Shown piece by piece: positions 9,860 to 62,945 of a stretch of 64,000 bases of DNA; position 1 is the stretch's first letter, and every line of letters starts with the position of its first letter. A model generated the notes under the pieces. It was not told the origin of the DNA, did no database searches, and worked only from the letters and a program-made list of their open reading frames with translations. Source of the DNA: Moniliella sp. 'wahieum' (lineage: Eukaryota); assembly GCA_003971905.1 (NCBI GenBank), contig RSEE01000063.1, positions 310,001 through 374,000 on the forward strand. The letters are read 5' to 3'. A program made the translations under genes and the position numbers.

Positions 9860-12800
9860 TGCGCCGATCAAAAGAAGGTGAGGGGCGGGGAGGGGGAGGC
9901 AAGGGGGCGGGAGACGTGGTGGAGGCGGTGATGTGGGCGTGTTGCTGTCTTCTCAGGTGCCAACTCGTACTCAACGGCGGGCCTGGGTGGCGAGGGGGCA
10001 GGTTTGCGCAGCCTGGTCGCTGCAATTTGAGACGCAACGTATATCAACGCTGAGCGCGCTGAAGCTTGAAGCTTGAACATTCACCGGCACCAGCGAGTCA
10101 CTTCTTCTAAGATCTAAGCGCTCTCTGAGCGGGCAGGGCGGGGGGGCGGAGGCCTGGGGGGTGGCACAGGGCAGCACTCGGGCGCTGCGCTGTGCATACG
10201 CAGCTGGTGCCGCATCGGCGCCCAGTACCCAGTGCCAGTGTACCAGTTGATAATGGCGTGTGATGCATGATGCATGATGCATGATGGGAAAACGTCCTTC
10301 ACACTGGCGCCATCCCAAGCTTGATGATCGATGATCGATGATGGGGACCTGTGACAGTGTGACATGTGAGCGGCGGAGCGCTGAGCAACTGAGCGCCTCA
10401 GCCGGACGATCTGCAATCACCCGCCGATCGGCAGGGCCATAGTGGATAGTGCATGGTGCATGCATGATGTGCATCATGCGAGCTGCGTTGGAACACTCTG
10501 TACCTTCCCAACAAATACGATGGCCCGGCTGGAGCCTACACGACCTGACTATAGTGACTGGTGCTGTCGCAGGCTATCGCTCGCCTGTCGCTCGTGTCCC
10601 CGTGCAGCTTGAAGCTGGGCCTCGGCGGCTCACTTGGCAGTGGCCGGCCAGGAGCGGCACCGGCGGCCACCCCCGTCACGCGATTGGGACCATGCGTCAT
10701 GCATCATGCATCATGCATCATGTGTCATGCATTGGCGATGCCGCGGGAGCGCCGTAGCGCGTAGCGTGTAGCTGCAAGCAACGGCGACTGGCCACAGTGT
10801 CGCAGTGCTGGCTTCAAGCTCTAAGAGCTTTAAGCTTCAAGTTTCAGCGAGTTGGACCCTGTTGACCGGTTGACCGCATCGTCTGCCTGCCAAGTACCAA
10901 GCACCTGGATCAGCGGTTCGACCCCGCCGGTCAGTTGGTCTCGGTCACTCGGTCACTCGGTCACCTCGGCCACCGTCCGCGTCACTGCATCATCTTACCC
11001 CGTCGGCGTGTTGGCCAGCTGGTCGAGTAGGAGCGGCAACAGACCCACGGAGTAGGCCAACAGCAAACAGGCAACAAGAACTTCAAGCGCCGATGCATGG
11101 CTTGCATTTTCGTACGCTGCTCGATTTGCTTCAGAGCTCGCTTCCTCAGGCCTCAGGGCCTCAGGGGCCTCAGGGCCTCAGGGCAGCCATGTCACATTGT
11201 CACACCGGATTCACAATTCCGCCGGCAAAACCCGTCCCCCAACCCCAACAACAGTAGGCCCACTGAATATTCGTCAGAGAAGCTTGAAGCCCAAAATGGC
11301 ACAACCACCTCCCGCCCACTCCACCAGCCGATACCTACTACCTGTACACAGCCAGAGGGGCGTGCCAGTTGATTGCTTAATCCTAAAGCCGGAGAAGTGC
11401 TTTAATCCTATACTATAAGAGGGTGTCGAAGGCGCGGGTGCAGAATGTGGCGCGGCCATTGAACTGATGACAGCTCCGGGCCGTCATCTCCAAGAGGACG
11501 TGTGGCATCATGAAGTTTCACCGCGCGTATACAGCTAGCTTTGTTCCACTGTGTGAGACAGCCTCCGGCTGCATGGGGGTAGAAGCGGTTGGACGCGTCC
11601 GCACAGACGATGGATTTACTTGCGCGTAGACGGCACATACACCGCTCTCCCTATTAATGGCCGGTTATACCAATAGACGTGCTGATTGACAACTCTTACT
11701 TGCACCGGAACGGGAGTTTTATGTGTAGAGCCGGCCAGGACGGGAGGCCCCCAAAGGGAGACAGAGTATATATGGGACCTAGGTCTTTCCAAGCAAATCA
11801 GGCCAACGTGTGGGCCACAACTCCTCTGCCTTCGCGCTGCGTCTCGTGCTCGCTTCACAGGAGACACTCTCCCTTGGAAGAAGAGAAGTAGTGGAGTGAA
11901 GAATGATTGGTATCAATAGCATGCAACGGTCAAAAACTCCTGTCGAAAGAGAATAAAAAGGTCACGATGACGATAGATCAAGGTTAACCAAATGCAGGAA
12001 AAATGGGACATGACAGTCACTTGTGGTTCAAAAATATAGAACCAAACAGAGATCCATATTGTAAAGAGAACAAGATCACAACTCCCAACAAACCTGAGAT
12101 AGTCACGACATATAGAACCCCCGAACAACGAGAGAATTATCGATGCCCGTAGAAAAAGGGCCTCTGTGAGCTCATTGTGACCATGCTGTGTTTTTGGCTG
12201 CTGCGGAGCATAAAACCGTGCCCCAGACAATCTGGGTAGTCTCTCTATCGTCCCAGTCCTGAGCAGTTGTGGTGTTGACCTCCTTCAAAGGTGCGCACGG
12301 AGGCACACGGCCAATTTTGACCAATTTGTGTATGTTATTGCCACAGTCTTCTTCGGACCTGAGAGCGGTGCCGGGTCACCGCTGTGTTGAGCTCTTAGCG
12401 CCAGCATACGATTCTTAGAAATGGCTAGGGGAGGGCTTGTAGGGGGAAGTGTGGGGTATAGGGAAAAGGGGGGGATTTGGGTGCGGCCATATATATAAAG
12501 AGGCTGCGAAGGGACTGACGCTCGATCCGACGAATGTCCGCTTACTTAGAAGGGGGTACATAGTAAAACGGTAATGATCGCGTACTTGCATCAGAGTGTG
12601 CGTTTCAACGAGCGGTAAGGAAGTGGAAAATTTGTAGGAGAGTAGGGAGGCCAGAAGAGTATCAGAGCCATCAGGTGGTATATGTAGCGTCCGAGGTCAC
12701 CTATCCCTTTCTCAAAATGCTCCGTGGTCCACACCCATTATCCGGCTCTTCCCCCTATGCTCTGCCCCTTACGGGATGCTCTCCTGAAAGTAGTAGCATC

Positions 12801-13469
12801 ATCAATCGTTTACAAAGAGGGTTTGGAACTGTGTGGAAGGGTGTCTGGGGAATAGATATACCCGCTGAACGCGTTGAACTCACCATGTCGTAGACGTTGA
12901 GGCCTCCTGAGGCCTGAGGCCTATAAGGCTGGGAGGTGGGTACGAACTCGAATGGATGAACGCGGATGCATGATATGCATGACCACACGTCACGTGGTTG
13001 GCTGCATGACCGGCCCATGACCTTGTGTCATGTGATGCATGTGATCGATGATCAAATTTCAAAGAAGGCAGGACAGGGCGACAATCCCCTTGCCCCCGCC
13101 CCCTGTTTCCAATTGGGATGGGCGGAGCGTTGACCAATTCCGCCGGAAGCGCGTGCGGCAGGCTGCTGCCCAGGTTGGCCGGTGGAAAACGTTGTACCCT
13201 AGAGGTGACGCGTGACGCATGATGTATGACGCGTGACCACAAACGTTCAAACCCGGGCAGCCTCGGTGGATTAGAAAGAGAAAGCGACGCCGTACGAGGC
13301 TGCGCTCTCGACGGGAATTTGTAAGCTGGCTCCATACAGGCGCCGTGCGGCTGGGCGGGCCCGCCCGGGATGCCAATGCTGGTACCCGGGGGCTGGCCCG
13401 TTGGACGCCGTCGCCAAGGGGGTGGGTGGGCTGGGCAACTCCAACTTCTTTCCCGCTACCCTCTACAAG

Positions 13470-20406: not shown

Positions 20407-22789
20407 GCAGTATATATAGAGGCGAGATAGAGAGACCCTCTATTATAGAGGTTAGGTGTTGTTACCGGGGATTATCTCCGGACGCTGAGCCCCGCATGTC
20501 GTAGACATCTCAGCCCAACACGTGTCAGTCCCATTAGTCTAGCGAGAGAGAGCCAGTCGACACCTTATCCATCTTCCGCTGCCCGCCCTGGTCGCATGGG
20601 CTCATCGGCACGATGCTTTGTGTCCATTGCGTCCTGTCTTGGCAGAACCATTCCTGCTGTGCCCGACTACGCAGCTTCAGCGCCTTGGAGAGCACGGGCT
20701 GTGCATTAGTCTTTACCTCTCTGCAAAGTGCCCCGCATTCCGTCTACTATACCTGTCAGGAGGCACTTGAGCCCTGGTTCCTTCTGCTGTATATAAGCAG
20801 CCAACATGTCTATAAGGCTTGCTAACTGTGGCCTTTGTCGACCATCCTGTCTTTGGTCTCCCCGACTACCCGTTCTCTTGCCCTTCCACCTTCTACCACA
20901 CCCCTACACTTACGAATTTACGACTTACGTCGAGTACGCTGCAAGCTGCGGTTACTCTCATCAGTAGCGCTTGATGAGACCTCTGGAGTCCTGATGGTCC
21001 TCGAGGGTGATGCAATCGCACTGGTGGTGGTGGTGGTCTAAGCCAACCAGCAACGCCTACAGAGGAACAACAAGCAGCGAGTTGCCACCAGGGGCTAAGC
21101 TGCGGAACAGGGAAAAACAAGAGAGAGAAAACAATGGAACTCCCAGGCCTCAGTGAGGAGGAACTGAAGGGACATTGGGCAAAGCACGAGCCACCCGATG
21201 GCTCAACAGCGGCGCTTGCTCTTCTTTAGGACTCTGTCTGTTCCCGCATACTACAGGGTACCAAGTGTGGTAACGCTGCGAGGGACAAAGTAACCTCGGA
21301 GCTCCTGGGCCTATTGAGCTGGTCTAACGACCTATACGTAATAGGCGGCTCCTGCACAACTAGAGGGTCTCTCCCTCGCCTCTACACCCGCTCGGTTCAA
21401 CAAGGATCTGGAACAGGACCTAACGTACGAGATACCGATTGGCCTGTCCAAAAGGGTTTATACCCTAAACTACAGGTGGGTCTCACCTCGGGACCCTTCC
21501 CCCCCCATGACAGGTGTGGCTGCCTGCGCACAGTGCAAGGGCCGCGGCTCACACCCTCTGAGGACGGAGCAACTTGTGCAGGTATCGTCAAGACCCGTTG
21601 AAGAGGTCTACGTGCTCTGGGGTAGCGCGTAACGCGTCTTAACCATACACTCTTCGTCGCCGTGGCAAATCAGACGGAGTCCTAATTGAAGAGCAAAAGC
21701 GCTATATAATACTTGGATCGAGTAACCGCGGCTTTTGTGTGCGGTGTATATATAACCGACATGAAGAGTCTGCGTCGGTTTTGTATTAAGCTTCATATTA
21801 TGGGAGAAGGCGAAAGGGTGACCCATATCGAGTAAGCTCAACTCCCAGAGCAGGTGCCATCATCCGCTTTTCTTACTGCGACGTACACGCACATCCATTA
21901 GTGTCAAATGTTGGTGATTGCTGGGAAACGGCTAGTACTAGTATATAAACTTCTTCGTCACAGTTATATAGTACCGCCCTGTTTTCCTTCTTCCCCCTTC
22001 TATAGTACGATTGGTACATCTGTACCCTAGCGTCCCTTTCATTTCATTCCATACCAAGGTGATGGAGGCAAGCTCGGCCGGTGAGAGCCACTCCCGCCAT
22101 GCTGACTGGGTATATGGCAAACGACGCGGCAAGCAAGGGCTGGGGCTCTTGGAACTGTATTCCGGGACTGTGGCTTGGCGCACTATCGATGGAAGAAACC
22201 TCATGTGTACCAATCAGTTTTACCCTGCTACTAAGCTCGCCACTGACTTCAATTTGGTTCCCTCTTGTTAGAGGGTACTACTAGGGTTCTCCTGCGCGGC
22301 CCTCAATGGATCGGTGACGCTCGCCTAGCCGAGCGGAAGCGTTCCGCTCGCAGGCCGCGCACGCCCTGCTCGCTCCATCTCCCTTCTATCTCTCCTTTCT
22401 CCTTCCCTTCAGACGTTGCTTGAAGACTCTTGTGGCTCACCACTTTGCCTTCACGTCTTGTCTGAAGGCTGCTTTGCAGCTGATCCATAGGATCGCGAGT
22501 GCTCCCAAGTCGCACTCTAGCACCTCTGACGTGCCTCGCCCCAAAATGATCCAGGAGTCGGGCCCGGACACAAAAGGGCAAAAAATTTGTCCAGGTAGTT
22601 ATGGGGTCCTGGCGAAGTACATAGCTAATCGAAATTTCTAGTCACAACGTTGCCGCCGATCTCGCCTCAAGGTGAGAAATTGATACCGTGAGTCTATGAT
22701 TAGAAGTGCCACAACCCTGTACAAGAAAAGCTTGCGCAAGATGGTCGCCAAGGTCGAGACAATCTATACCCGACAGCTTGGCCCCAGGT

Positions 22790-22962
22790 TACCCCCACCT
22801 ATCCCCCACCTATCCCCCACCTATCCCCCACCTATCCCCGGACAGTCCGCAGCCTTGCTGGCAGGCTGGTGGCAAGGGTAGCCACAGATATTTTCACTAG
22901 GCTGGCGGCTAGGGCGGTGGCTAGGGTGGTGGCTAGGGTGGTGGCTAGGGCGGTGGCTAGGG
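22790..22962. repeat. Subterminal tandem repeats of the transposon: 11-bp ATCCCCCACCT (~4x) and 12-bp GGCTAGGGYGGT (~5x)
   Basis: Directly visible. Copy 2 (57713-57865) has only ~2 of the 11-mers. Confidence 0.9.
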
Positions 22963-23979
22963 TGCCACGATGCTATCAGATCAGGCAGTGGATTATCTTT
23001 AAAAGCATGCATTGCCATGGTTGTTTAGACACAGAGACGTAGAGGAGCGCCAAGGCAACGGCAGGTTGTTCGAGGAGCCTCAGGACGGCGGCAACCACAG
23101 AAGCTTTGCCTTCGTCGTTTAATCGCAGACCAAAAACATCATGGGGACACGGAGATGATAGGGATCGAAGGGCAAAGATACAAGAGCCTTACAACTTGCG
23201 GCGTGGGGACGAAGCGTCATCGCGTTCGAGAGGGAGAATGAGTCCCGCAACCATACGGCGAACGATGATCTGTGTGCAAGCCTGTATATGTTCCGTGGTC
23301 GTTTCCTCAGCACTTGAGCGCCTTCTCCGATCATCCTGCTTAAAGGTGTTGTCAGTATATGGGCGGATAAGGACAAAGCGCAGGTACTGACCTGGCCGGG
23401 GAAACCGTCGCCGTCGACCGTCCGCTGGAAGCGCCCCCGTCGTTGATCTTCAACTCGCCTTCGGGAGGTATGACCGGCATCTTGGCGCAAATGATATCAG
23501 GCAAGGCTGTGCCGCCAGGCGTGGCCGACTCAGTTCCGGTGGCTGCGCACAGGCCAGTCAGGACGGCAGGCATCACAGCATGGGGGGCGTGGACGTACCG
23601 AGGTCGGGCGCGTGCACGGCAGGGGGGCGTCAGTGGGCGGCGATAGCAGCACACGTATTCATGGTGATTAGTACAAGCCGTGCACACGGCAACACAGCTC
23701 TGGTAGTAGTGTGTGGCCAACGAGAGAAGAGAGGCTGTGGTGGTGGCGGTGGGGTGGTAGTCGAGAGGCAAGCGCATCGGCGCAGCTGCGTGCGGTTATA
23801 GGCGCAACCACCGGTGGCCCACCGGTGGTCCACCCGCATGGCGCCAGTGTTGCCCCCCCACGCCACCGCCCACCTGCAGCCTGAGCGTTTAGTATATATA
23901 TAGATTTTTTTAAGCTACGCACTTGAGATAGTCGTGACAGCAGCTATATACAGCACGATACTCCAGTCCAACCGTCTCG

Positions 23980-26900
23980 TTGCGAGAGAAGACCGCATTC
24001 GCACAAGTCGCGTTCCAGAGTGAAGGGAAATTGCCTCTCTTTACTCGCTCAACAAAACTAAAAGGCAATCGAGACGGTGTGCCAGCCTCGTGTGTATCGA
24101 GCAGTTTGTATCAGGAGACGATATACATTGGGTCCTTCGCGGGCGAGACCGCATTTTCCACCTCATACATGTCCTCGAACTCGTCCATCCGCTCCAAGAT
24201 GTCACAGTATCCCAATCCCTGGTCTCTCAGGGCGATTGTCCAGGCCCTCAAGGACGGGTTCATTGAAGAACCACACAAGGGACGATGGGATCTGATCGGC
24301 ACAAGGACTCAGCCGATGGTCATGCTCAATAAGCATCCACGCGATCTGGCCATTCACATGTACCTTGGCGAATCTGTTCACCTGGTCAGCATTTCGCGCC
24401 TATCTTTCCCGTCTTGTGGCAACACGACGCTGATAGCGACTCGTGGCACGGGATCGGAATCGACCTGGTCCAAGACGAGACGTCCAACCTGCGTGAAGTA
24501 CACCGGCAACAGGACACGCGCCTTCATTCTTACTCAGTTGGACATAACCAAGTTGCGCCTCTAACGACTATACCATTAGTAAGTTTTCTTGCTCTTCACG
24601 CAGCGGCAATTCTTGTCGGGTTGACTGATGACTTCCACATCCTGGTACGACACAGGAACAAGGGACGGTGAGGAAATTGGGAAGAGCGTCAATCCCCTTC
24701 GAGCCAAGGCCTGTGGCCGAGCTCTGGTCCGTCTCCAGCTAGTGGGCTGGGCTGATGGTTTTGCAGACAATGTGTCCAATCGGCCAAGCTCTCTGAACAG
24801 CATGCTGCTGGGCAACATGCACGTTTCACGGTCGCAGTCTAGATGGGCAAGGAACCTTTTCCTCTTTGCATCGGAAACGGCCAAGTCTCCTCCCGTTGTG
24901 TGAGCAGTTGGTAAAACAGCTAGAACCCTAAGTGAGTATCGCAATCTAAGCCAAGTTGCCTTTGAAGTCGCCGTGATTCCTGGGCAAAAGCAGCATGCTA
25001 ACGTCTTTTTCGAACTTGCAGGCAGTATCACGAAGACCTCATCCCTGTCTGGGATTCGACCACCGAGGGATGGATCCTTGTACAGCCCGTGCTGCGGATG
25101 ATAAAGGGCGACAACGTGGCCGCGAACGAGATGGCTTCCATTATGGGCATGACTGCCCACGTGTGCTGCCGTTTTTGCGATGGCGGACGGCAACGGGGAA
25201 CGAATACGTTGGCGGAGAACGTGGCTGACTGTCTTGTGCGTATACGACACCACTGGTGTTACTGCTGTGCATCAAAATGGGACTGAATATAACCGGCGGA
25301 TACATCAAGACGGAAAAGGCGATCTACGTTCAAGTGTCGAAACTAGGCGCGAAGTCGATCACCAATAACTCGACATGGTCGTCAAGAACGACGGCCGTGT
25401 CGACGATCGGGCGAGCCAGACCGGGGTTAACGACAAAAGTATATGAAAGACGTATCCTTTATCCTGTTCAAGTCCCGCAAGACTCTGGAGGACTCAGCCG
25501 GGGCGACGAATGGCAAGAAGCGGAAGAGGCTGCTTTCCAATTTGGACTCCGGCGTTCGTGAGCTGCTGGATGAGTTCAAGAACAACGGCTAAGTGTTCAA
25601 CCCCTTTTGACTGTCCACGAATGGCAGGGGTGCTCGAGTTTCTCGGTCGGCAAGAGCCTGGCGATCGACGTCATGCACACAGTTCTCCTTGGGCGAGTCA
25701 AGGCCTCGGTCGAGCTGCTGACGGACTCGAACTTCGATAAGGGGCCCTCGCTAGCGCTGTGGCTGGATTCGTTCAACTCGTGGGGCATGGAATCGGTGGG
25801 TCGACGGCTCAATGGCACTAAAGTGGTTCACAGCATGCGCTCAGTCATCACGGGGGTTGACTGCAAGATATTATGCCAGACTCTCCCTCTGGTGCTGCCC
25901 AAGTTGGTGGCCACTCTGCGGTTGGACTCCGCCAAGCCCGGCGTCACGGAAATGGCGAGACAGAGACTTCTGAGCAAGATTGAGAGGCTGGAGAATGTCC
26001 GCAAGTGCATTGTGGCCGCCGCACGCATTAAGTGGCTTTGCTACATCGATAGCTTCGCATTTCAAGACCGAGCTACATATGGCGTACATCTGAAACTGCT
26101 AGCTCTCCTAGGCCCGTGATCATCTTCGCTAGTCCAAGTTCACAACTTACATTCTGCCCCGTACAGATGTGCCCACAGGAACTGCTTGACAAGGCGGTGA
26201 TTCACATTTTCATGGCCATCGCTGCCATCGACCCGGCCATGCTCGTTCGTCGCCCCAAGTTCCACCTTCTGAGTCACCTCTCCCAGCAGGCGCTGTTGTG
26301 GGGTCCTCTCAAGAACGCTGACACACAGCGTGAGGAGGAGTTTGTCCGCGTCATGCGCAATGCGGTAATATTTACGAACCGCAAAGATATATGCTGCGAC
26401 TTGAACTACAAGGTAGCAGCCCAGGAGAACCTGCAAAACCTGCTATGTGGAGGGCGGGCAATCGACATGCCGCGTGCAAAACTCGTGTCCCGCGATACAA
26501 CCCCTGACGATGAAGGGGAGGATGTGACACAGGGTCTGCCCGGTGGGAACACCAAGAAATTGTCCGCAGAGGTCTGGATCGGCAGGGGCCGAGCAGCTTT
26601 GCAATTGAATGGTACACCGCCTCAAGCTGGCACGACGATTCAGCTCTTGGGCCAAGGGCTCGGCAGTGTGTGGCAAGTCCCTCCCGCACCCGGTACCGGC
26701 CGCAACAGCCCTTCCAGCGCTGGATCGTGTCCGGCTTCGATCCAGACTGTGGCTAAGGCCAAAGTCATATCGGTGCACGACAAGGTTGGGCTTCCTGAAC
26801 CAATGACAGCAGAGCGGCGTTCTGCCACTGGGCCGGTCGAAGATATTGTCGACATGCCGTTGGTCCGCGTACAGCATGGCCAGCTTTGTGCTAGGGGGGA

Positions 26901-27527
26901 CTGGGTGCTTGTTGCCCAACAGGATATTGGTGAGTCCTCCCACCCCGCCATGCCCAGAATCCTGATACGCCGCCCTTCTCCATTGGCGGATAGAACATTG
27001 CCGCCCAACGGCCTAATATGGTTGCTGTGCACCGGCGGGCCAATCCGACTCGCGAGGGGGGGTCGGGAGCAGCGAGGACTGGTTCCAACCTTGTGCTCCC
27101 TGTGCTTTGGGTCAATGTCGCTTTGGCTCGCATCATGCCTATCGACTCGGCATATGACATGCGAGGCCTTGAGCTACCGCGCGCGTCCGCCCGACAGATA
27201 CATTCCGGCTTTGCAGATCCACACATCTTTGGTTCGCTTAACGTCCAGCACAATTGCGTGAAGGCAAGTGCCGGGTTGTCCCCAACAGCATTACGGATAC
27301 AACCACTGGCTTGACGTTCGATGGGGTCCAGCACAACAACTTGTCTGGGATGTCGGCGGAACAGCGCTATACGTGCTCAACCACTTTGTCAACTCTTTCT
27401 CTCCCCACACCGATATATTCTGCGACTTGCGGACTTGGCTTTTGCCCAGGACTGGGCGGTCGAGGGCGAGAATGTCCCTTCTGCCGACGATGTTTTGGAG
27501 GCAGTACAATCCGTAATGAATGTTTAG
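23980..27527 (+). pseudogene. CMC-type DDE transposase, disrupted (boundaries approximate, introns likely)
   Basis: 'NPLRAKACGR..LVGWADG' (D1), 'IPVWDSTTEGWILVQPVLRMIKGDN..MASIMG..CCRFC' (D2 + CxxC), 'IDVMHTVLLG', 'PKFHLLSH...WGP...TQREEEF' (HxxxH + E), 'LNVQHNC'. TGA at 24901 and TAA near 25590 where copy 2 has CGA and TAC. Confidence 0.8.
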
Positions 27528-28419
27528 ATATTTCCCGAATGGCTACTAATGATGGTAGTCACCACTGTTGATGTATACTCTACACCATCAGTCTATCACA
27601 GTTGCTAGCGACTTGGCTGAAAACGAACACAGCACATGGGCTGCCCAAAGATTGCCAAATTGCTGCGGGAGGCTTAGGCTCCAATGGTGCAACGGCCAAT
27701 TCCTACTATTGGCTGGAGAAACCTCAGGTTCAATTCGTGGGTGGGCCATCTTTTTAAGATGTCTCGAGGCTGACCGCCGTTCACAATATTGTGATTAGAA
27801 TAGCGGGCAAGGTTGTGACGAGCTTTATAGGCAGCAATCTAGGGACAACTTCGCTGGGCGGCCTTGCCGCAGTGTGGTCCAAGAGGTTGGGGCTAGCTGT
27901 GTTGGCGAGGCGGCTGTGACAAGGTTGTGCCCCTCAAATCTAAAGACAAGCTTGTGGTGTGGCCGGCAAGGTTCTGGGCTAGAAATTTCGATTAGCTATG
28001 TACCCAAGCCCCGATGTACTCCCTTGCCTAACCCTCCCAATGTACTGTCTCCACCCGGCTTTCATATCTGTACTTCGGGCAGGCTGATAGTGTCGTGTGG
28101 CATAGCCCCAACTCAGAATTTGTCTTGACACTCTTCCTCGTGATATCTCCATCTCATCCTATGCGGGAGGACACAACCCCCGCCCCCCCAAACTTTAATT
28201 TGCGTTCACATTTTCCCTTCAGCGTGAATGCCATTCAAGGTTTTCAGTTATACATATACAATATGGCCTCTACTGTCGGAACAAGCTGAATGCTACAAGA
28301 ACGCAATTGCAAATACCACGGACGTACCCAATAGCCCTTCTTCTATGAAAAGGGACTCTCGGGATGTGGTTCATTCCAAGAGAGGAGCCCGCCAAGGGCA
28401 GAACATAAAAGTAAGAATC

Positions 28420-30402: not shown

Positions 30403-30460
30403 CCATATCATTGACCGAGCTTAAGGCTGGGACAAAGAAACGCTGAGCCTAAACCGACCA
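30403..30460 (+). repeat. Dispersed repeat family R, copy b
   Basis: CCATATCATTGACCGAGCTTAAGGCTGGGACA..AACGCT..CTAAACCGACC. Confidence 0.8.
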
Positions 30461-30553
30461 ATTCATCGATCATCCGGCGTCTGTTGCTTGTTAGCGCCAA
30501 CCCCGCTTAAGGAGCCAGCAGGGTAATCGCCAGGAGATTATATCTTGCTCGGA

Positions 30554-30759
30554 TGTCTACCACGTTCATCCGTGTCCACACGCGCTTCCTAGGGTACGGG
30601 ACCGGATGGCGACCACCGGAGGGGTCCTGGTATCGTGGCGATCCCCCTGGTTCTTTAATCTTGGTGGCGCTTCCAAGTAACCCCCGCAAGATGAACGGTT
30701 CGGTTTATCAAACGTAGCGTTCCCCCTGTCTCAACGCCAAGCTCTGTCAATGAAATGGA
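30554..30759 (-). repeat. Dispersed repeat family R, copy c (~200 bp)
   Basis: Colinear with 38771-38972, including CGCCATCCGGTCCCGTACCCTAGGAAGCGCGTGTGG. Confidence 0.88.
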
Positions 30760-31066
30760 TGCAAAGAGACTTTACGTCATGCTTACCTATTTGTTTGCGC
30801 CAGGTGGAGTTCCCATCCCACCTCCGCGCGCTCAGCCATGCGTGTGGGTGATGAAATTCGGCCTCTCCAGCGTGGAACGGTGACCAAGGTGGCGACGGTG
30901 GAACGATGGAACGGATGGTTGCCGTGGCGACGGTGGCCCAGCACCCAAACCGGGCCGTAGGCCCGCTGGTCCCCTAGTACCAGATGATCGATGAGCGCTC
31001 AGGCTGAGCACCATACAAAGCAACAACTTTTTTTGGGAAGTGCGGAATGAATAATGAGGGAAGGCT

Positions 31067-31150
31067 AGTAACTAGTAACTAGTGACTAGTGACTAGTGAC
31101 TAGTGACTAGTGACTAGTGACTAGTGACTAGTGACTAGTGACTAGTGACT
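31067..31150. repeat. Heptamer array (AGTAACT)2(AGTGACT)10
   Basis: Directly visible. Longest example of the xy-TNA-y'x' arrays. Confidence 0.95.
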
Positions 31151-33802
31151 GCCTCTACATGTTCGCCCACATCAACGTTCAACAGTCTTAGGAAATCCTA
31201 GCCTCGGCAACCCGCGTTCTTATTCGCTCACAGTCTGTATGTCATTCAGGGTGTGTGCGCCCAGCATGCCCTCCATATGATGAAGAGTATGAGGCCGTCG
31301 GGTTAGGCTGAGGCGCCGAGGGGCCTGACATAGGCTTCAGCTTCAGCTTCAACACCTGAAGCCTGAAATTTGAAAGGGGACACGCTCGATTAATGTGGGT
31401 CATGTGGGTCAATTTCCGACACGCTCAAAAGTTGGTGTCGCATGCCACACATGTGATCTACGGCGACCCCGTATGTGTGCCTGAGGAAGGGGTTGTCGGG
31501 AACTAATGCATGTGCGACCTCATGTAACCGTAACCGGTAACCAACCGACTGTAAATATGCACAAACATATCATTAAATCAAATTAATCATTGTTCTCCCA
31601 CCGGAGCATCCCCATTTTCAGATCTGAGATCTGAGATCTGACAGCTTTACAAGCATGAGATGCATGATTATAGTATGAAGAGCCACAAAAGGTCATCGAG
31701 TGCGAGCTCTCTCGGTATTATCAGGACTTCACACATCATGTGCATCATGCATCACCGGTAACCAGTGGTTACTATACCTTGCTTGTACGTGAATCCGTCA
31801 ATCGCGACTGCCCTCTCCGACGTTCCGCACGTCAAGTTTCAAGCTTCAAGCTCTTCAAGTCTGCAGCACCGTTAATAAGCGACTGTGCTGGTTTTTGGTT
31901 ACCGGCGGTTAATACCCGTTTGACAAGCTAGTACTACTCTACTTGACGGTAACGCGGTAACCGGTAACGCCCGGTAACCGGTAACGCGTAACGTGTACTA
32001 CTTGCATGCTATACCAACAGTAGATGGCATCTATATCCTCGATCATGTCGATCATGCATCATGCATCATGCATTATGCCAATGATGCATGATATGTTGTT
32101 GTTGACAATATCGCATTGTACCTGTCACACATGTCACTCACTCATTTTATCAACGTGTCGGAGATGTCGTGCCTCCTTCTGTCCCTCGAAATGTAAGAAG
32201 CGCCCGTTCAAACGTTCATGACGTTCATGCATCATGATGCATGACATGTGACATGATGACAGGAACCGGGGGATACTCTCAATACTTTGGTACTCGATAC
32301 TCTCGTAGTACTCAGTGGGTTCTGCGGAATACTTGATACTCAGTCCGAGTGCTGAACGTACCCAACGGAACGTTCAACGCGCTCAACGACGTCAACGTTC
32401 AACATGCTCAACAGCGTTTATCATTTAATGTTCAAAACGTTGAAGTTGAACGTTGAAGCTTGAAGCTTGAAGCTTGAAGTTCAACCGCAGAGTCCGGTCG
32501 AAAGCTATACTATTACTCGTGTCAATCTATCTGTAGTCAGTATACTTACGAGTCACTCTAGTCACTAGCTAGTCAGTGCTGAGACTGTCGTCACGCGTCA
32601 GTACTCAGTGCAAGCTCCAAGTTCTTCAACAAGCTTCAAGTTCTCCAAGCTTCAAGCTTCAAGCTTCAAGCTCTTCAAGCTTCAGTATTCGGTACCAATA
32701 TCAGTGCGGAGGCGCTGAGTACTACTAAGTACTCAGTGAGTACTAAGATATAGTATGAACTTTGAACGTGAACTTGCATCCTTTTAAGTACTCTGTTCTG
32801 TTGCATTAGGGTTATGGTGCTTGGACCATATAGTACAGGATCTATCTAGAACTTATATTAAACCCTCAAAGACGTGCACAGTGTGCAAGTCACATCTGGG
32901 AGCATATGAGCGTGAGCGCTGCATGTGACACACATGTGGGCAATGTGAGCCATGTGAGCAATGTGAGCGCTGAGCGCGCGCTGCGGCTGAGCCCGCTGCA
33001 CAGTCACTTGTCACTAGTCCGTAATCACCACAGTGATCACTAGTCACTACAGCCACAACCATTTTGGTTGTGATTGAGTGGGTATTATGATTGTGGGTAT
33101 TCTATTGATGGCCTTGCGCGTTCCAATGGACCGCTGCGTGCATCTGCATCAACGTCAGCTAGGCGCCGAAGCGCGAAGCTTTGAAGTGACTAGTGACTAG
33201 TGACTACATTGGAACACAAGTGCTTCAAGCTTGAAGCCGTGCTGGGCGCTTCTGCGGCCTTTGCTTCCTAGCTGAGGCCCTGAAGCCTGAGAAGCAGGCG
33301 CTCAAGCGCTCAGGCCTGAGCCTCAGGGGGAAACAAGGTTGCGCTTGGTCACGCTCCTCTTAGAGGGACTGTGACATGTGAACGTTGAACACCGAACATC
33401 GGCAGTGCACCTGAGGCCTTGAGGCTTGACGCTGATAGTGATTGACACTTCGGTGACTTTCACAATCAGTGTATGTGTAGCCACCCGGGTGGAGTCCTTT
33501 CGAGCCCCAGTGTGTGTGGCAACTAGATTCCGCCTCAAGCTTCAAGAGTGGAACGACGGGCAACTCGAATTCTTCTTGCCTGCCACCACCTCGCCAACGC
33601 TAGTGCCCTTGCTTTTCAAGTTCCCTCGGTTCTCGACGCCGCCAAGCTGCGTCGCCACTGAACGCATCGCACCCGTTCGTGCTTTACACACGCCAGCACA
33701 ATCGTCGCACACCCGCACGGCTCTTTTTCTTCGCATAATCCGACACTATCGATACCACACTTCTTCTGCGCCTCCTTTCACCCGGGATTACATTCCTTGC
33801 TC

Positions 33803-35632
33803 ATGCTCCCTTATCCTGAAAACGACCTGTTCTTGCATGGCGCCCATTCTGGAGAATTTGCCTCATCCTCGTCTGGACTTCATCAACCGTATCTGGGGGC
33901 CGGCACTTCTAATTCCTTCTCCCGGTTCTTAAGCCCAAATGATACAGCGATTGGTCAGAAAAATCCGCAGGCAATTCACCAAGCGTCTACCTCTCCATCT
34001 TCGGGGGTTGGTCCCACTTCCAGGAGCCCCACTTGGTCTTCTGCAGTTATCCGCTCCATGAACGAAAGCCAGGGGAACCACTTGCTCCACGGAGAGAATC
34101 AGAAGGGGAGAATGAGTTCCTGTACTATTTCGGACGCTTCTGTGGGGAATATTCCCAGCGGAGGACAGAACGGACAACCTTCAAACATTGAAGTTACTAA
34201 CGAATTGAGCATTTCGTGGGTGACCTTTCTTCTACGCTTCAGGAAGAGGATCTGGTGAATCATTTCCTGAACCCACCTGCGTGGCCGTCCGGCCATCCTT
34301 GTTTAGTGGCACACGGCCATAACCACTCCCACAAGGCACAGCACGAGCTGAACCAGGCTGAGATTGGCCCTGCTCCGTTCACTGGCATCAAAGGAGCCAA
34401 AGTAAGTTTCATATCCCTTGTATGAAGGATTATGACGAGCTGATTGGGTTTCCACAGATCATGACCGATCCCGTAACCAACGCTTCTCGTGGATTTGGTT
34501 TCGTACGGTTCTACAATACGCAGGAGGCCCAAAGGGCTTTGGTTGAGATGAACGGAGTCCTGATCACTCCAGCAGATGGGCGTTCGCCAGCACGGCCTCT
34601 GCGTGTTTGCCCTGCTACCGCTAAGAGCAAGGGTCAATCTCCTACTGGACATTACTCTGGGAGCGCCAAGTTGAACTCTGGAAAGGCAGCAGTACCAGGG
34701 GGGACGCAAAATTTGCGTTCTTCCCCACCTTCCATTTCTTCGTTCACGCGTGATTATTCCAATGGCGAACCTCAACCGTTCTCATCAATCCTTATGGACA
34801 AGACGAGTCAACAAGCTGCCAATCAGGCGGCTAACGCCGCGAGCGCTTCAGACCCTCGCATTACCACCGTCTTTGTTGGAGGGTTGTCGTCCTTGGTGTC
34901 AGAGGCTACACTGAGGACCTTTTTCGCACCATTTGGGGAAATCTCATACGTTAAGATTCCCCCTGGAAGGGATGTGGTTTCGTCGCATTCCTTCGCAAGT
35001 CGGAGGCGCAAAATGCCATCGACAAGCTCCAAGGGTTTCGTTTGGCAGGATCCAGCATCCGACTCAGTTGGGGGCGGAGCCAGGGAGACAAAGCGGCAGC
35101 TGCGGCTGCAGCGGCCGCAGCCTCTGACTTCCCCAATGCAGCACCAAATCACGTTAGCCATCACGTTACCCAGTTGGCCGCCCGCTATGGTCTCACGGGT
35201 CTTTCCACCACCCAACTTACTCAGCTGCAAGAGCTTATCCGCTTTGTCCATGGCGAAGCCTGCAACGGTAATAATGTCCTGGACCCTATGCACCCTGCAG
35301 GCTCTCCGTTGGGTGGTGCGGATATGATGGGCATTGCACAGGATGCGTCTGGGGCATATGCGCGGTCTTCTAGTGATGGATCGATACCTATGCATCCAAC
35401 TCTTTCTCAAACTGGGTTGCAAGAAGGAAACGCCTCATACAACGCCTTATCGACATCGTCCTTGTTGATTGGACAAAACCATCCCCATACCGCATCGTAT
35501 TCTTCACTCAGTCCTCCCAAAGCTCTCGCTCGCTGGGGAGATTACGACTTGGCTGGCCCTTGGAGCAACGGACCCGAGTCATCACTTTTTGGTGGTTTAC
35601 CTCGGGCGCAGTCTCCTCTGTTCTCTCTCTGA
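33803..35632 (+). CDS. Nam8/Ngr1-family RRM RNA-binding protein; intron 34402-34457, two frameshifts
   Basis: 'GDLSSTLQEEDLV', 'AK|IMTDPVTNASRGFGFVRF..EAQRALVEMNG', 'DPRITTVFVGGLSSLVSEATLRTFFAPFGEISYVKIPPG', 'IRLSWGRS'. Confidence 0.85.
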
Positions 35633-38760: not shown

Positions 38761-38770
38761 TCCTTTTGAA

Positions 38771-38972
38771 TTCATATCATGACAGAGCTTAAGGCTGGGA
38801 CAGGGGGAACGCTACGTCTAAACCGAACCGTTCATCTTGCGGGGGTTTTTGAAAGCGCCACTAAGGTCAAGGAACCAGGGGGATCTCGCTAGGATATCAG
38901 GACCCTCCGGCTCTCGCCATCCGGTCCCGTACCCTAGGAAGCGCGTGTGGGCACGGACGAACGTGGTTGACA
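38771..38972 (+). repeat. Dispersed repeat family R, copy d (~200 bp)
   Basis: GACAGAGCTTAAGGCTGGGACAGGGGGAACGCTACGTCTAAACCGAACCGTTCATCTTGCGGGGGTT... Confidence 0.88.
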
Positions 38973-41900
38973 GGCCTCCTTTTATAATTAGATGCCTCTG
39001 CGCCCATACCCAACTCTGGCTCCAATCCATCACCTTCTCCTCATCATTCTGCGCGCTGAGACTCAGCGCGCTCAACCGGCTTCCTAGGCCAACAGGTGTC
39101 ACATGTCACCGGTCACCAGCGGCGACACAACCGAACGAGAAAACCCAATATTTTTTGCCTTTTTGTGCGACAGCGGGGTGCACGCGCGAGTAGTACTTAG
39201 TAGCCGTGCATATATAGATGCGGCCGCGGTTGCCCGTCTAGGTACGTAGGGGCGCTGAATAAACCATATCCCCTAAGAAGGCCCAAGTGGGGGGTGAACG
39301 TGTGAACGCAGCGTTACATCCGTACGAAGACAACTAATACTAATATTGATTGCAGCGCGCACAAGACGCACTCCACATCAGTTGTTTTACTGCGCTTACT
39401 GCACCGAGGGAACAGCATCGTAAGCGTAACCCTTGAAGCTTGAAGCTTGCGGTGTGGAGCAAAGCTTCTTACAACATACGCCGCTATAGCGGCCGTCTAA
39501 GGATGCAACAGTCCGGATATACGGTCCAATACAAAGAGAAGTGACTAGTGACGCGTGACGACTAGAGGCCAGTGTGACACAAGTGACTGCAGTGACTAGT
39601 ACTAGTAGTACTTCACTAGTACCTAGTATAGCTAGTGGCTAGTGATGCATGATGCATGATGTATGATGTATGATGTATGATGATGATGCATGATGTACGA
39701 TGCATGTTGCTAGATGGAATAGCTTCAAGCTTCAAGGATATCGATCGATTGATCGATCGATCATCGATCATCCGGCACAATCGCTAATGTTAGCTTTGAC
39801 GAGTGTGTGTATTATAAAAGTACTTTGCCGAGGTCTTCTGGCCCCTCAGGCCTCAAATTCCTCAAACCGGATCCCTCCCACATATTTTCTCCCTTGTTTC
39901 TCTGTTATATATTGTTTCTGTTATATATAGATCTGGACATAAATCATATGGGGTGCGTTTCGGGAGAAGAGAGATATGATGCAATGCATGATGGGTTTTT
40001 CATCCGTCAACATAACTATGTTGTATGGTGTCGTTAAAATACTGCGAGAAGAGTACTGACTGCCACAGAGTAAGCCCTCTCTTCAGAGGCGGTGCGTGAG
40101 GCGTGAGGCGCGAGGCGTGCGGTGCGGTCAGCACAGGTGCCTGCTCTGCATTCTTTTTCTCCAACAACACCAACACATTAGTTAAAGAACAGATTCAGCC
40201 ATATCTATGGTACATCATTGCATCACCATCTTTGTACGCCTACCAAAATGGCATTGTCAGTGTTACGAAAGGGTGGAGATTATCGATCGATTTAAAGAGA
40301 GAAAAGTCCGTTAGGGACAGAGCATATATATGGGTGAGTCGCATACATATAACAGCGCCAGAGATGATGTGTGAACAGCTACATGCATATGGTGGCGTTG
40401 ACAACCTCGCCGAGACCCGACGCTAGAATCCGACGAGAGTTTGGAAGAGTGTCGGGTGTCGGGATCAGACTCGATCATAGTTGTCTGGCCCCCTTGATTT
40501 GTTCTCCACCCTGTTTCCCCCCCTTTGGATTGTGCCCTCTTTTCCTCGTGTGACTTAGCTCGCATTTCTCTTCTCCGAGACATATATATACCCCGCTCTC
40601 TTTCCACAACACTCGATGAATATGATCCCCATCCTTTCCCCCATCCCCTCCTGTTAGGTTTGATCCCACTCACAGCCTTCCGGCTTTCAGCCCAATCGCC
40701 ACCCCCATGTCCGCTGGACACATCTCTCTACCCTTCCCCTCCCCTATACACCACATGTCCGCCGCCGCACACGTGCTATTGCGTCCCACGCGGCCAGCTG
40801 AAGGAGGAGGATAAATGAGGATGTGGTTCTGAAGAGAGGTACAGGAGACTGTGAGAAGGGGAGGGGCCGTATATATAGGCGAGGTTACCAGGAGCAGAGG
40901 GAGCGTCCGGGCGGATAAGAGGTTTCATGCCTATCACGCAGGACGGCGTGTGATGATTGGGCATCCCCAACAAGAGACAGCTGGCAGAGGAGAGGGATCT
41001 GAGCCAAAGAGATGTGCTTGATGCGAGGAGCCTCTGATCCTCAGTCAAGCTATAGCTTTTTGAACAGAAGCGAGGCTGTCAACCTCTCGTCTACCCGCGC
41101 CTTTTTAGTTACCCCCGAACCAATCATCCCCAGCGCTGCATGGTGGAACTGTCAGTCCGGAAGCGCCTCCAACCAGAGCCGACAGAATTGGGCCCCCGTC
41201 AACAACTCCACAACATGTTAGCTATTGCCGCCGCCGCTGTCACCGAGCCGGCCACACCCCTACCATCGCCGCCAACGCGCCGTAGATTCTTTTCATTTTC
41301 TTTTACAGTGCGGCCGACTTTGGAGAAAGTTGCAGGGAGAACTGGGGCAAGGGAGAACGTTTAATTGTGACGACGCCACGGTACCTATATGACAGGATTT
41401 TCGGACAAAGATTAGGCATCACGGTGGCCATGCAGCGTATGAGATTTTGGATGAAGACAGTTTGAGGGCTTTTTGTCCTCTTCATTCTGTACACGCGTGT
41501 TGAACACGAGAGGGACCCACAATTCGAGAGGAGTGGCGCGTGGTCCTTAGTTCTCGCTTGGGAGATGATCTTTGTTCACGGTTGTGGCTTCGGGAAAAGG
41601 CCGCGGTCTGTGAGGCATGACATATATGCCTAAAAGATTAATGGTATTACGTATCTATTAATGGTGGTACTGTATACTCTTCAGACCAAAACATACTTAT
41701 TAACCATCGCCTGATTCGCTTCATTTAGTTGGAGAACGAACGGAATGATGAGAGTTGTGATGATCGAGATGGACGCTTTCTTCTGTACGGAGTTTCGACG
41801 GATTCTAGGGGAGACGACAATTCCCGGGGTAAGAAGGACGATAACTTTGAAGACAAGGTCATGAGAGCCAGTGTGGAGCCCGTGCCTATTCGGATGATAG

Positions 41901-42726
41901 TGTAGCGACGCAAGTATGCCAGAACGCAAGCGAGACACAACAGTCTCTACGATGCAGACAGCGAATACAGCGGAGAGAGGGGGGGAGTATTGAGTATAAG
42001 CGGGAGCGGGATACAGGTGGAGGTAAGGCAAATACAGGCGTTGCTACGAGAAGAAAACAAAAGCTTCTGAGTAGGTAAGCTAACTGAAGAAGGCCTAGCC
42101 AGCCACGTGGCAACAATAGGATGCGGCTGCCTCCTTTGTACCAGTATATTGCGCCCCACACGCGTGTGTTGAACGTTGAGAGGCCATAATCAACAAAGCC
42201 AATGCCTGTCTTATCATCACTTTCGTATAGCCCCCCCCACTACGGATGCGAGCACGATGCCACCCGCCAAAATCTTGGAGCTCAGCCTGTGAGCGACAAG
42301 CAGGTTCAGGTTGTGGTCACCAGCTTCGTACTCCAATGTGGTCTGATGCTACCGCTTGGGCACAACTCAGTGGCTATTAGGACCCGCACTCACAATCCCA
42401 TCCAAAAGTTTGATTTTTGCCACGTTTTACACGAAACTGTTCGGGAACCGATCTTCAGGCCCCATGTTCCGACGTACTGCGCTCCATCCCGGACACCGAC
42501 ATTCTCAACGAGTGGGTTCGGGAGGATGAGGACAAATGCGTTTGGGGAGGAAGGACATCATATACGTACGGATTTTACCGAGTAGTGATGCTAGTGATGC
42601 ATGATGGGACCAGGAGTGCCCGGGAGATCAGGAATGAAGCTTGAAGCTTGAAGCTTGAAGGCGGATCACACACCTTGAGGGAGAGTCCTGAATTCGGAGG
42701 TGCAATATAATGATACCAGCCATTAT

Positions 42727-42841
42727 CCCCCTGGTTCCTTGACCCTGGTGGTGCCCCCAAGTAACCCCCGCAAGATGAACGGTTAGGATTAGACGTAGCG
42801 TTCCCCCTGTGCCAGCCTTAAGCTCTGCCAATGACATGGAA
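42727..42841 (-). repeat. Dispersed repeat family R, copy e
   Basis: CCCCCGCAAGATGAACGGTT..AGACGTAGCGTTCCCCCTGT..CTTAAGCTCTG. Confidence 0.88.
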
Positions 42842-44236
42842 TCAGTGACGCGGAGGGGTCATACAAAATGTCACACGGGAGCCACACATGCTACTAGCTT
42901 CCAAGTATTTTCGCGAGACGGTAACGTTTTTTGGTAGCTAAAGGTTTTAGGCCGTTAGGCGTTATGACCCTGAGACCCGAGGGCCTGAGAGTAGCTGGTA
43001 ACCGGTACAACTGGTAACCGAAAACGGCAACTGCCTAATAAGGCTAGCAACTGGTATATATATAACCTGTGACATGTGATAACTCGATAACCCTAGTGGC
43101 TTGTGGGCATATGCGACTTGTAACGTTGACATAGTGGTGTGTGATTCTGTAGTACGGGGTGGCGACAGCGAATGTGGTGGGCGCAGCGATCTTCCAGCAG
43201 CGCAGCAGCTTGGGACGAGGCGGGGGGGCGGGGCTTGTGGGGCTAACATGCAACAACAGGCCGATGATTAAGGAGGCGCTGAGGGGTGACCTCACCGGTC
43301 AGCTGAGGCCTGAGAATCTGAGAGCGCTGAGGCGCGGAGGCTCAAATCCAGCATGCACATGGCGTGCTGTGAGCCTCAGAGCCTCAATATGCTGGACGAG
43401 CCGCAGACCTCTCGCTTCGTGTGGAACACGCTATGGCGATGATCGCTGAGCGATGAGCGATCGATGAGCGTTGTCTGTGAGCCATGCGACATGCGACATG
43501 CGAGCGGAATCATCGTCTTATCACCACTCTCGTCTGGGATTGTAGATTCCGGGGGGATCGCGGCGCGTCGGAGAGAAAGGACGATGAAGCTTGAAGCTTG
43601 GAGAGGGTGTGCTGTCGCCAATGCATCCTACGCCCACCGCCCCCAGCCTGGGAGAGGCACATAGGCCAGCACCTAGCACCTAGGCCGTAGACTTCTCCTA
43701 CTTGCGCAAACACACCTAGCGCTTTGCAGAGCGAGCTCCCTACAAACTGCTCCGCCGAGGCCAATAAGGCCGGTGGTTGGGGGCTTGAGATTTAGTTGAT
43801 GTTGAATATTGAATCCTCACCGGCCGGTCACCTGAGGCCCAGAGGCCTCAGCCTGATGATCGATGAGGTCGATTGAGATCACCGAGATCATCCTGGTAGG
43901 GACTGGTTCGTTGCTATTTGCGATAGTTACTAGTTACTAGTTACGACTGAGCTCTATAGCTACGAGCACACTCGCGAACTCAGTTGAACGTGTGTACTCC
44001 GTTACAACGCAACACGGCTGAGCAGTGCGTGGTCGACCTGCTAGAGCTCTGTTGGTCGGCGTGTTCAACGTTCAGTGGCATGTTCCTCGGCAACAGATCA
44101 CGCTGCCTCCGTGATGAGGTATGGTCCAGCAGTCAGTTCCGACTTCCGCATCCTCGCCATCTCTTGCCTTACCCGCGTCAAGCTTGGCTGTGGACTGCCA
44201 CCACCACCACCACTCCCTTCGCCCACCCTCGCCAGC

Positions 44237-54084: not shown

Positions 54085-54651
54085 GACCCCCCCCTTCTCT
54101 TTCGTCGTCTCTGTATCTATACGTTGGACATGTTGTTGAAGGTTGAGTAAACGTATATCACGTTTATCTGATCTCTGAGCTTTCTTCTTTCGTCTCGGTT
54201 GAACTTATTGTCGCACAGTTCCATCCTTGGTTCAGAACGTTCAGACATGGTGGATGTAGATCTGTTACCATGTTACCATCCAAAATTGCAGAGGGTAGCA
54301 GAGTTGTGTACTTACAACAAGCCTCAGCGAAGGAATGCCATATCTATCATCAATAGCTGCACTGAAACAGGATAGGAGATGGCGGGGACGTATCAATGTG
54401 CTTTATCCTCCCCATACGGATTGAAGACTTCCTGGGGAGAGATAATACATGTGTGCACCGTTTCCAAACATGATGCATGGATCATGATCACCACAACCGA
54501 TCAATTTCTCCAGCAAGCGCCGACAGTGTCCCCAGTAACTAATAATTAATAACGGTTCGTCCCCTGTCATGCATGTCACCTGGCACTCCAACCAGACAAC
54601 CGCATCATTGCAATGTCCTTCAAGCTTCACCCTTAGCTCTACTTTCCATAT

Positions 54652-54735
54652 GTAACCCGCAAGATGAACAGTTCGGTTTAGACGTAGCGTTCCCCCTGTC
54701 CCTGCCTTAAGCTCTGTCACATGTCAATGATATGC
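54652..54735 (-). repeat. Dispersed repeat family R, copy f (carries a 7-bp insertion)
   Basis: CCCGCAAGATGAAC..GTTTAGACGTAGCGTTCCCCCTGTCCCTGCCTTAAGCTCTGTCA[CATGTCA]ATGATATG. Confidence 0.88.
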
Positions 54736-56682: not shown

Positions 56683-57544
56683 CATAACTGTCGGTGGGGG
56701 CGGCTCCTGTGCGCGACATCAGCAATAAACTCTCTGTCATCTCTGCACGTCCTCGATGCCCTGCTGTCTGATGCAGCCCCGTTCACCCACCGCCGCTTCC
56801 ACGCGGTTGCTGAGTCCCGTGGCATTCCAACATGAAGGCGAGCTGCGAGCCTAGTAATGATGGCTTCAATCATCGCATCATGACGTGCCGTGTCCGTCTT
56901 TTGGTGGAAGAGAAGTTTTATTTCTGCCCCGGCTTTCAAAAGTATACGCTCCAACTTGCAGTAGTTTAACCCAGTGTGTGTAACCCATGTAAAACCGGTG
57001 TAACTGGCGACTGAGCCGGCCGACGCCAAAAGAGACACACTGCATAGTCAGGTCCTCATGTGTTTTGCGCCAGGATTCGTCAAACGTCAGTGGAACCTAT
57101 AAAAGGGACATGCATGGATCGTGGACTCCAGAAGGACTCTTGCTACCACGCCAGTTTTAATGAGAATGTGGTGGCAGAGTACTGACCGAGGTGCTGTCAG
57201 TGCTCACAGTTTATGTCACCATGTGTTGGGGGTATTCAATTACACGACACCCGTCATCGGGGCTTTGGTTACCGGAAATGGGATCCTTTGCATGAGAGGA
57301 TACCGTAAGGAAGGGGTTGGGTTGATGTAAGATGGAGAATGAAGATTGAAGGGCGATTCATTGATAGAATGGGGTTCAGGGTTGCCAACCCCGAGAACGA
57401 TGGAGAGCCACAATATTTTTCCCGTGGGCTCTGTAGTCGCCTGGGTTCTCGACAGAGCGCATCTTTGTGTTAGGGTACGCCGCGCACTCCGCACGCGCGT
57501 CCTACGGCTATAGTCACGGCCAACCCATCCCACGTTCGTCTCTA

Positions 57545-62873: not shown

Positions 62874-62945
62874 TATGCATCCAAGCTGGCGTGTGCATCC
62901 ATGCTCACCGGTGCACAAAAAATCTCATGTAGATAGCACGTAAGG

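Follow-up and report, generated by a model that had tools for sequence, protein, structure and literature searches.

T-N-A-centred heptamer arrays upstream of genes in a Moniliella contig as candidate scars of a flank-hairpin-forming enzyme

Heptamer arrays in gene-free DNA

The window analysed here, a 64-kb stretch of contig RSEE01000063.1 of Moniliella sp. 'wahieum', contains gene-free zones populated by short arrays of 7-bp units which differ in sequence but share one geometry, that of an interrupted palindrome centred on the triplet T-N-A. All counts given below refer to this one window unless metagenome loci are named. Its genes, as identified by Pfam on open frames, encode a PX/DUF3818 protein, a secretory lipase, a Rieske protein, a CTNNBL-like protein, an RRM protein, a cyclin, ribosomal protein uL6, a 14-3-3 protein and a palmitoyl thioesterase, and the best named relatives of two of the window proteins are from Exobasidiomycetes (Tilletiopsis washingtonensis and Jaminaea rosea, 48%; Tilletiaria anomala, 38–42%), which places the fungus among basidiomycetes in or close to the Ustilaginomycotina, with no closely related annotated species. 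Rfam and tRNA scans of the window gave no hits. The densest region, 31060–33430, lies upstream of the RRM gene (34362..35632, + strand), which the first-pass annotation of this DNA had called Nam8-like. Pfam and the top solved-structure match, yeast NAM8 (E=7e-19), bear this name out, and the Nam8/TIA-1-like gene probably has further 5' exons at ~33.4–34.3 kb.

The arrays listed by that annotation are all present where it placed them, both on inspection of the sequence and by Tandem Repeats Finder (TRF). The longest chain (31065..31150) is made up of (AGTAACT)x2.7 followed by (AGTGACT)x10.4, the latter spanning 31078–31150 (TRF), and has 11 CTAG junctions and a unit that continues into both flanks; a second AGTGACT array, of 3.1 copies, lies at 33185..33206. 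Between them are a TCTGAGA array with three GATC junctions (31618..31641, the units themselves at 31620–31641), GGTAACC/CGTAACG arrays (31947..31993), a CATCATG array with TGCA junctions (32039..32091, units at 32051–32073), a mixed array of GTTGAAC, GTTGAAG and (CTTGAAG)x3 (32436..32479) and partly decayed CTTCAAG arrays with AGCT junctions (32611..32684, one array at 32646–32672). The description of this region as saturated by such units was nevertheless overstated, since strict units make up 18% and period-7 repeats 24% of 31060–33430, at a density of ~11 loci per kb.

Perfect period-7 arrays number 23 in the window versus 0.0 in 20 dinucleotide shuffles, while periods 6 and 8 give 5 and 2. 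When perfect heptamer arrays of at least 15 nt were considered, 23 of 34 formed an interrupted palindrome in some rotation, as do 10.7% of random 7-mers, and T-N-A was the centre in 23/23; the other 11 of the 34 were non-palindromic. The pattern TNA-[4-bp palindrome]-TNA, whose comparison with shuffled controls had been proposed and was run within the window, has 124 matches in 85 chains or loci, where 30 dinucleotide shuffles give 9.3±3.0. With any of nine different centres, among them ANT, GNC and CNG, or with a gap of 2 or 6 bases, matches reached at most ~1.7 times expectation where at least 9 were expected; sparse control rows, with 2–6 expected, rose to ~3 times, none of them having more than 12 matches. 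The geometry is therefore specific to T-N-A and to a step of seven, other centres, spacings and periods being without enrichment over shuffles, and it belongs to many sequences and not to one motif: all 16 of the 16 possible palindromic junction tetramers occur in the window, where at least 12 had been claimed. Of 209 central triplets, 173 are TGA or TCA.

The same periodicity is seen without reference to palindromes. In the gene-free zones the spacing from one TNA to the next peaks at 7, 14 and 21 (159, 119 and 100, versus ~64 expected), and the rest of the window is without peaks at these distances. Distance 9 is mildly enriched in the same zones (82 versus 64), and a period-9 array at 32923–32968 (ATGTGAGCA) has the TGA core of the heptamers; a 7-base model leaves both unexplained. 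As for composition, the base at the palindrome centre is G/C in 65 of 94 junction types (background 55%), the central N is G/C in 69 of 85 chains (background 67%) and AT-only junctions are scarce (6/94), a composition that may reflect a mild target or repair preference.

Nearly three-quarters of the chains (63/85) fall within three gene-free zones that together make up 29% of the window, 26 of them inside 31060–33430. Each hot zone is upstream of genes. One, with 13 chains (10060..13236), is the spacer between the divergent lipase (−) and Rieske (+) genes; the second precedes the Nam8-like gene; and the third (39099..44074) lies upstream of the cyclin gene. Two arrays of period 8 were also noted in these zones, one at 11146–11184 (CCTCAGGG), a heptamer array with GGCC junctions in which G-run indels have lengthened the spacers to 5–6 bases, and another at 43302–43341 (GCTGAGGC).

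The elementary event and its flank rule

The sequence itself shows one elementary event, TNApq -> TNApq·q'p'·TNApq, in which five bases are copied directly and two are new. The two new bases are the reverse complement of the outer flank pair, with which they make a 4-bp palindrome without a loop. A site ab-TNA-pq gains 7 bases and becomes either ab-TNA-pq-q'p'-TNA-pq or its mirror, ab-TNA-b'a'-ab-TNA-pq.

Single events provide the broadest evidence for this rule, 50 of 63 obeying it on at least one side (chance 12%). The flank continues the pattern downstream only in 22, upstream only in 18, on both sides in 10 and on neither side in 13, where chance would give a match on one side in 12%, on both in 0.4% and on neither in 88%. 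The mirror outcomes are therefore balanced, 22 versus 18, and the 13 rule-less events are comparable in number to the ~9 matches expected by chance. The controls for flank matching are imperfect, as palindrome-spaced pairs with other centres match in 15/63 and array-selected metagenome loci in 52/149; both exceed the naive 12%, yet both are far under the 50/63 of the window.

Counts that begin from the repeat and not from the palindrome agree with this. Among exact period-7 runs of five matches, 14 of 22 TNApq repeats have as spacer the reverse complement of their last two bases and none has the other form, xyTNA repeats have the mirror form in 13 of 21 and the other form once, and other 5-mers do so in 11 of 62. 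Similarly, when 6-bp palindromes between identical bases and followed by the repeat were counted, enrichment was confined to those beginning with A and ending with T; in this class 136 cases have T before the first N and 16 do not (shuffles, 0.4 and 0.75), and starts with C, G or T give no more than 3 per class. The two N of the repeated triplet are identical in 106 of the 124 matches, complementary in 9 and otherwise related in 9, so that T-N-A must have been copied directly and not folded back.

The product is also narrowly defined. When isolated TNA-N4-TNA pairs were classified (n=145), 40 belonged to the class in which the palindrome is shared with the flank, and pure 7-bp tandem duplications numbered 3–4, the background level of other centres. 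Products expected of a hairpin opened at its tip or 1 nt off were not in excess, with 0 of the 145 isolated pairs falling solely in the 1-nt-offset class, and TNA distances showed no excess of gains of +3 (a 3-bp duplication alone), +5 (a 5-bp duplication alone) or +11 (both overhangs kept). Palindromic targets are over-represented about threefold among the single events (10/50 versus 1/16 expected; p=9e-4), which fits a target that reinforces itself.

Arrays with more than one type of junction allow a stricter comparison. Repeated events on a non-palindromic site ab-TNA-pq are predicted to give b'a'ab junctions on the left, pqq'p' junctions on the right and the ancestral unit between them, with matching flanks. 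In chains with two junction types, both flanks match in 8 of 9 (1/256 per chain by chance; p about 5e-19), which places a non-palindromic ancestral unit in mid-array. Within 31060–33430, chains with both flanks matching include TGCA then CCGG (31745..31761, with a non-palindromic middle unit), CCGG then CGCG (31975–31991), TGCA then CATG adjoined by a single TGCA event (32225..32261), CGCG then GTAC (32591..32607) and CATG then ACGT (33372..33388); further two-type chains in the third hot zone are at 39099–39115 and 39542–39558. The mixed array at 32436..32479 is also one of the eight; its middle unit, GTTGAAG, would be the ancestral target, whose left pair gave rise to the ACGT junction and whose right pair gave rise to AGCT.

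The event can be seen before and after in alignments of a dispersed repeat. In one of five copies, CAT-TGA-CAGAGC became CAT-TGA-CATG-TGA-CAGAGC, an insertion of 7 bases (TCA-CATG-TCA on the + strand, 54717..54726). The other four copies have a single uninterrupted T-N-A (AT-TGA-CA) with non-palindromic flanks, so the palindrome was made by the event and was not chosen as its target. The repeat itself is a non-coding family of ~0.2–0.36 kb with five partial copies (30403–30765, 38765–38972, 42725–42842 and 54644–54723), one of which is an inverted pair; the family is without a clean target duplication, and the copy at 38768–38972 is bracketed by an 11-base direct repeat.

The events are young, given that perfect spacers far outnumber decayed ones. 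TNA spacers in the gene-free zones comprise 100 perfect palindromes, 34 that have lost one pair and 25 that have lost both, for which shuffles give 3.8, 24.4 and 34.0. They are also regional. Two copies of a 5.4-kb transposon (22618..28002, with 24-bp perfect terminal inverted repeats, and 57543..62875) served as a negative control. Neither copy has a TNA-palindrome-TNA site, giving 0 in 10.7 kb of transposon DNA, and of the 60 indels that separate the copies (~5% divergence at aligned positions) one is of 7 nt and off the rule, and none follows the unit rule. As these diverged copies carry neither sites nor rule-following indels, the process must be regional. The position of the hot zones upstream of genes and the absence of sites from the two transposon copies, from which the idea is drawn, are consistent with open promoter chromatin as the target.

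The transposon copies are in direct orientation and are 92.6% identical over 5458 aligned columns including gaps. Their terminal inverted repeats start TACATAGC, from which the target duplication is probably TA and the ends CATAG..CTATG, and subterminal tandem repeats of 11 and 12 bases are present in copy 1 (22792–22964). The transposon frames had no Pfam match, and no transposase was found when 12 frames were re-run at E up to 5. A 402-residue frame had no homologue in a word-index search; a full HMMER scan gave 65 distant relatives, mostly of ~1000 residues. Of ten relatives scanned, one scored 27.7 bits with the CACTA-type tnp2 family, just short of the cut-off of 28.6, and an Atlas search led to DUF6830. 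These similarities suggest that it may be a Plavaka/CACTA-like element.

Public metagenome contigs were scanned for (AAGCTTS)x3, the commonest array, yielding 121 loci, of which the 60 of at least 3 kb were assessed. None of the 60 showed enrichment like that of the window. The best, L042, had 7 extra chains versus 34 non-palindromic ones (p=0.013, uncorrected); several of its loci are paralogous copies, so that this evidence is partly non-independent. This contig (positions 1–20024) is eukaryote-like and has about four tandem copies, 78–88% identical, of a 5.5-kb unit with an intron-split AAA_11/UvrD-like helicase gene, in the spacers of which are TCTGAGA, GGTAACC, CTTGAAG and TTGATGC arrays. 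One 7-base array indel separates its paralogues, the remaining 7-nt indels being off the rule. No genes common to the window and the metagenome loci were detectable, and L042 is suggestive only as a second instance.

Proposed origin of the arrays

Our working hypothesis, which we judge somewhat likelier to be right than wrong, is that the units are mutational scars left by a transposase-like, flank-hairpin-forming enzyme that repeatedly cuts nnTNAnn. In the simplest form of this hypothesis an element with 7-bp target duplications would insert and be excised, and slippage would then extend the arrays. The flank rule supports likening the junction palindromes to P-type nucleotides, which arise from hairpins and have the flank as their template. 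The first-pass annotation had likewise proposed P-nucleotide-like footprints adding one heptamer per event at nnTNAnn and regenerating a palindromic target. The first two parts gain support from the flank rule (50/63), the mixed arrays (8/9) and the +7 of the before/after case, and the third fits the excess of palindromic targets.

We infer the chemistry of the event by analogy. Flank hairpins are described for hAT, Transib, RAG1 and MULE transposases or recombinases; host nucleases open them and joining leaves footprints (PMC5499845). Basidiomycete transposons with 7-bp duplications are also described, namely hAT7, from rusts (Pucciniales), and Kyakuja, from Laccaria (PMC12730594). In the proposed route an element with a 7-bp duplication (nnTNAnn) would insert and later excise. 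Both flank hairpins would be opened 2 nt from the tip, leaving palindromic 3' overhangs pqq'p' and b'a'ab; opening at 3 nt would yield the same 2-nt product because T pairs with A. In-register joining of the overhangs would follow, with one version surviving out of two, the gain always being exactly 7 and the two mirror outcomes equal. Because the flank palindrome is loop-less, hairpin sealing by direct transesterification and off-centre re-opening would be expected. Any target would in this way be turned into palindromic units with perfectly matching overhangs, and arrays would lengthen both when the newly made units are hit again and through ordinary slippage, with events confined to gene-free DNA upstream of genes. 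The enzyme, its stagger and its chromatin targeting are all inferred.

A number of observations weigh against this hypothesis. No element with a 7-bp duplication was present among 550 outermost inverted-repeat pairs in the window, and a scan designed to detect inverted ends with the same nnTNAnn 7-mer on either side, the elements that the annotation had suggested should be sought, gave 0 in the window and 0 in 10 shuffles. Nor was any transposase family found among 132 window open frames compared with Pfam, in agreement with the annotation's remark that the window does not reveal the responsible enzyme. End joining usually leaves far less uniform products than these, which show no excess of +3, +5 or +11 and no other opening offset, and the enzyme may be more deterministic than host repair. 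The same sequence would arise from a 5-bp duplication plus two P-nucleotides on one side, a variant that needs an asymmetric target; symmetry is the sole reason for preferring the 7-nt stagger. The before/after support comes from one case. T and A stand one base apart, which differs from the hAT target consensus nTnnnnAn, and ~11 loci per kb is far above any transposon footprint record known to us.

The lack of an element in 64 kb and the near-invariant product leave room for a reading without any mobile element, in which a resident, possibly domesticated, hairpin-forming nuclease would cut T-N-A in promoter chromatin and reseal it with a fixed gain of 7 bases. We regard this as unlikely but worth serious thought, and such a nuclease, or a repair route beyond those known, remains a live alternative.

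Rather unlikely, in our estimation, is a polymerase or repair route free of any transposase, in which the copying strand would switch to the complementary strand, or prime by folding back, at breaks or nicks preferring T-N-A. The very uniform product could reflect one fixed repair reaction, and neither a transposon of the required kind nor a transposase was found in the window. However, the palindromes are loop-less and snap-back priming requires a loop, a template switch through the triplet predicts complementary N, as seen in only 9 of 124 matches, and a return to the original template 5 bases back would find no microhomology in the one-sided cases. We know of nothing in such routes that accounts for the T-N-A specificity.

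That the arrays are selected promoter elements, bound by dimeric DNA-binding proteins recognizing A-NNNN-T palindromic hexamers or interrupted 7-bp palindromes, is suggested by their position upstream of genes, and purifying selection could explain why perfect palindromes so greatly exceed decayed ones. But all 16 junction tetramers occur and therefore no single factor fits, and selection for binding predicts neither the copying of the flank pair nor non-palindromic middle units. We consider selection improbable as the origin of the arrays, which may have been co-opted later as promoter elements.

Ordinary replication slippage, perhaps aided by hairpin-prone units, might have expanded heptamers that were palindromic by chance, with no special enzyme. 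Slippage is clearly active in the window. Inside the third hot zone (39656–39682) there are 3.9 copies of TGATGTA, a unit that has mutated and is not palindromic, 11 of the 34 perfect heptamer arrays are non-palindromic, and G-run indels have stretched one array to period 8. Slippage copies existing bases, however, and 2 of every 7 inserted bases are new, as they reverse-complement the flank pair; tandem duplications of exactly 7 bp around TNA do not exceed background (3–4 versus 40 in the palindrome class), and both the T-N-A specificity and the ancestral middle units are left unexplained. As the sole source of the units slippage therefore seems quite improbable, in line with the annotation's view that it cannot make them by itself; that it does contribute is shown by the TGATGTA array.

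T-N-A is a known target of the PIF/Harbinger and Tc4/Tc5 families, and a transposon of that kind, duplicating T-N-A only and leaving two bases of each inverted end, would produce the right shape, a 3-bp direct repeat around a 4-bp palindrome. The bases of an element end would be constant per family and independent of the flank, whereas here 16 tetramers are found and the junction repeats the flank pair in 50 of the 63 single events, which makes this explanation very improbable. An assembly or sequencing artefact is scarcely credible, as the loci are many, diverse, partly decayed, intergenic only and set within unique sequence, and like heptamer arrays are present in L042, which has a separate source.

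If the favoured account is true, the genome holds a dense and readable record of one DNA-breaking enzyme, each scar showing the target, the duplication length and the position of hairpin opening. It would offer a route by which microsatellites are born from non-repetitive DNA, footprint first and slippage after, a source of rapid variation in promoter length, and natural data on how hairpins are opened and ends joined in a fungus, without the vertebrate machinery. Were the agent instead an element-free nuclease, it would be a mutator that is aimed at promoters, reinforces itself and places tunable tandem repeats before genes.

Comparison with known systems

Full-text literature searches, from whose coverage subscription journals are mostly absent, gave no description of T-N-A-centred heptamer palindrome arrays or of footprint arrays in fungi. 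The heptamer repeats of bacterial intergenic DNA (cyanobacterial STRR and the G-rich repeats of Xanthomonas and Nostoc) share the 7-base intergenic period, but they are prokaryotic, have one unit per array family and opposed arrays that form long hairpins, and are without a T-N-A or flank-palindrome grammar (PMC4692102).

Micro- and minisatellite slippage shares with the present arrays their growth and decay, but cannot make two reverse-complement bases or a T-N-A rule. The exact copying of a neighbour that slippage entails is absent from the first events and is found in the later growth of some arrays.

The footprints of Tc1/mariner, Tc4/Tc5 and PIF/Harbinger elements consist of a short direct repeat of the target flanking a few extra bases from the element end, and T-N-A is among the targets. 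In the window the extra bases come instead from the flank, and the net gain is 7 and not 3–5. Constant, flank-independent bases of the kind an element end would leave are not seen, the 16 tetramers tracking the flank pair.

The closest resemblance is to flank-hairpin systems, among which the named hAT elements include Ac/Ds, Tam3 and Ascot-1. An 8-bp duplication of nTnnnnAn, the hAT pattern, is not found in the window, where units recur every 7 bases and a single base lies between T and A. Duplications of 7 bp are possible within hAT, as hAT7 illustrates, and the +7 gain and the symmetric nnTNAnn would fit the 7-bp duplication of hAT7/Kyakuja, but a 5-bp duplication with 2 P-nucleotides would fit as well, and no inserted element was seen; these elements are described from Pucciniales and Laccaria and not from Ustilaginomycotina, and none resembling them was found in the window (PMC12730594). 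As in hAT, MULE and Transib footprints and in V(D)J P nucleotides, the empty site retains the duplicated target, and loop-less palindromic bases are templated by the flank end, implying off-centre opening of a hairpin (PMC5499845). The window shows the same features in the duplication of the triplet with the same N (106/124), the net +7 of the before/after case and the flank-templated bases. It differs from such footprints in that +7 and the 4-bp palindrome are nearly invariant, in that events recur in place and build arrays, and in that promoter-like DNA is filled at ~11 loci per kb with no element in the window. We therefore regard the pattern as transposon-footprint or P-nucleotide biology in a new form, with a real chance that its agent lies beyond those so far described.

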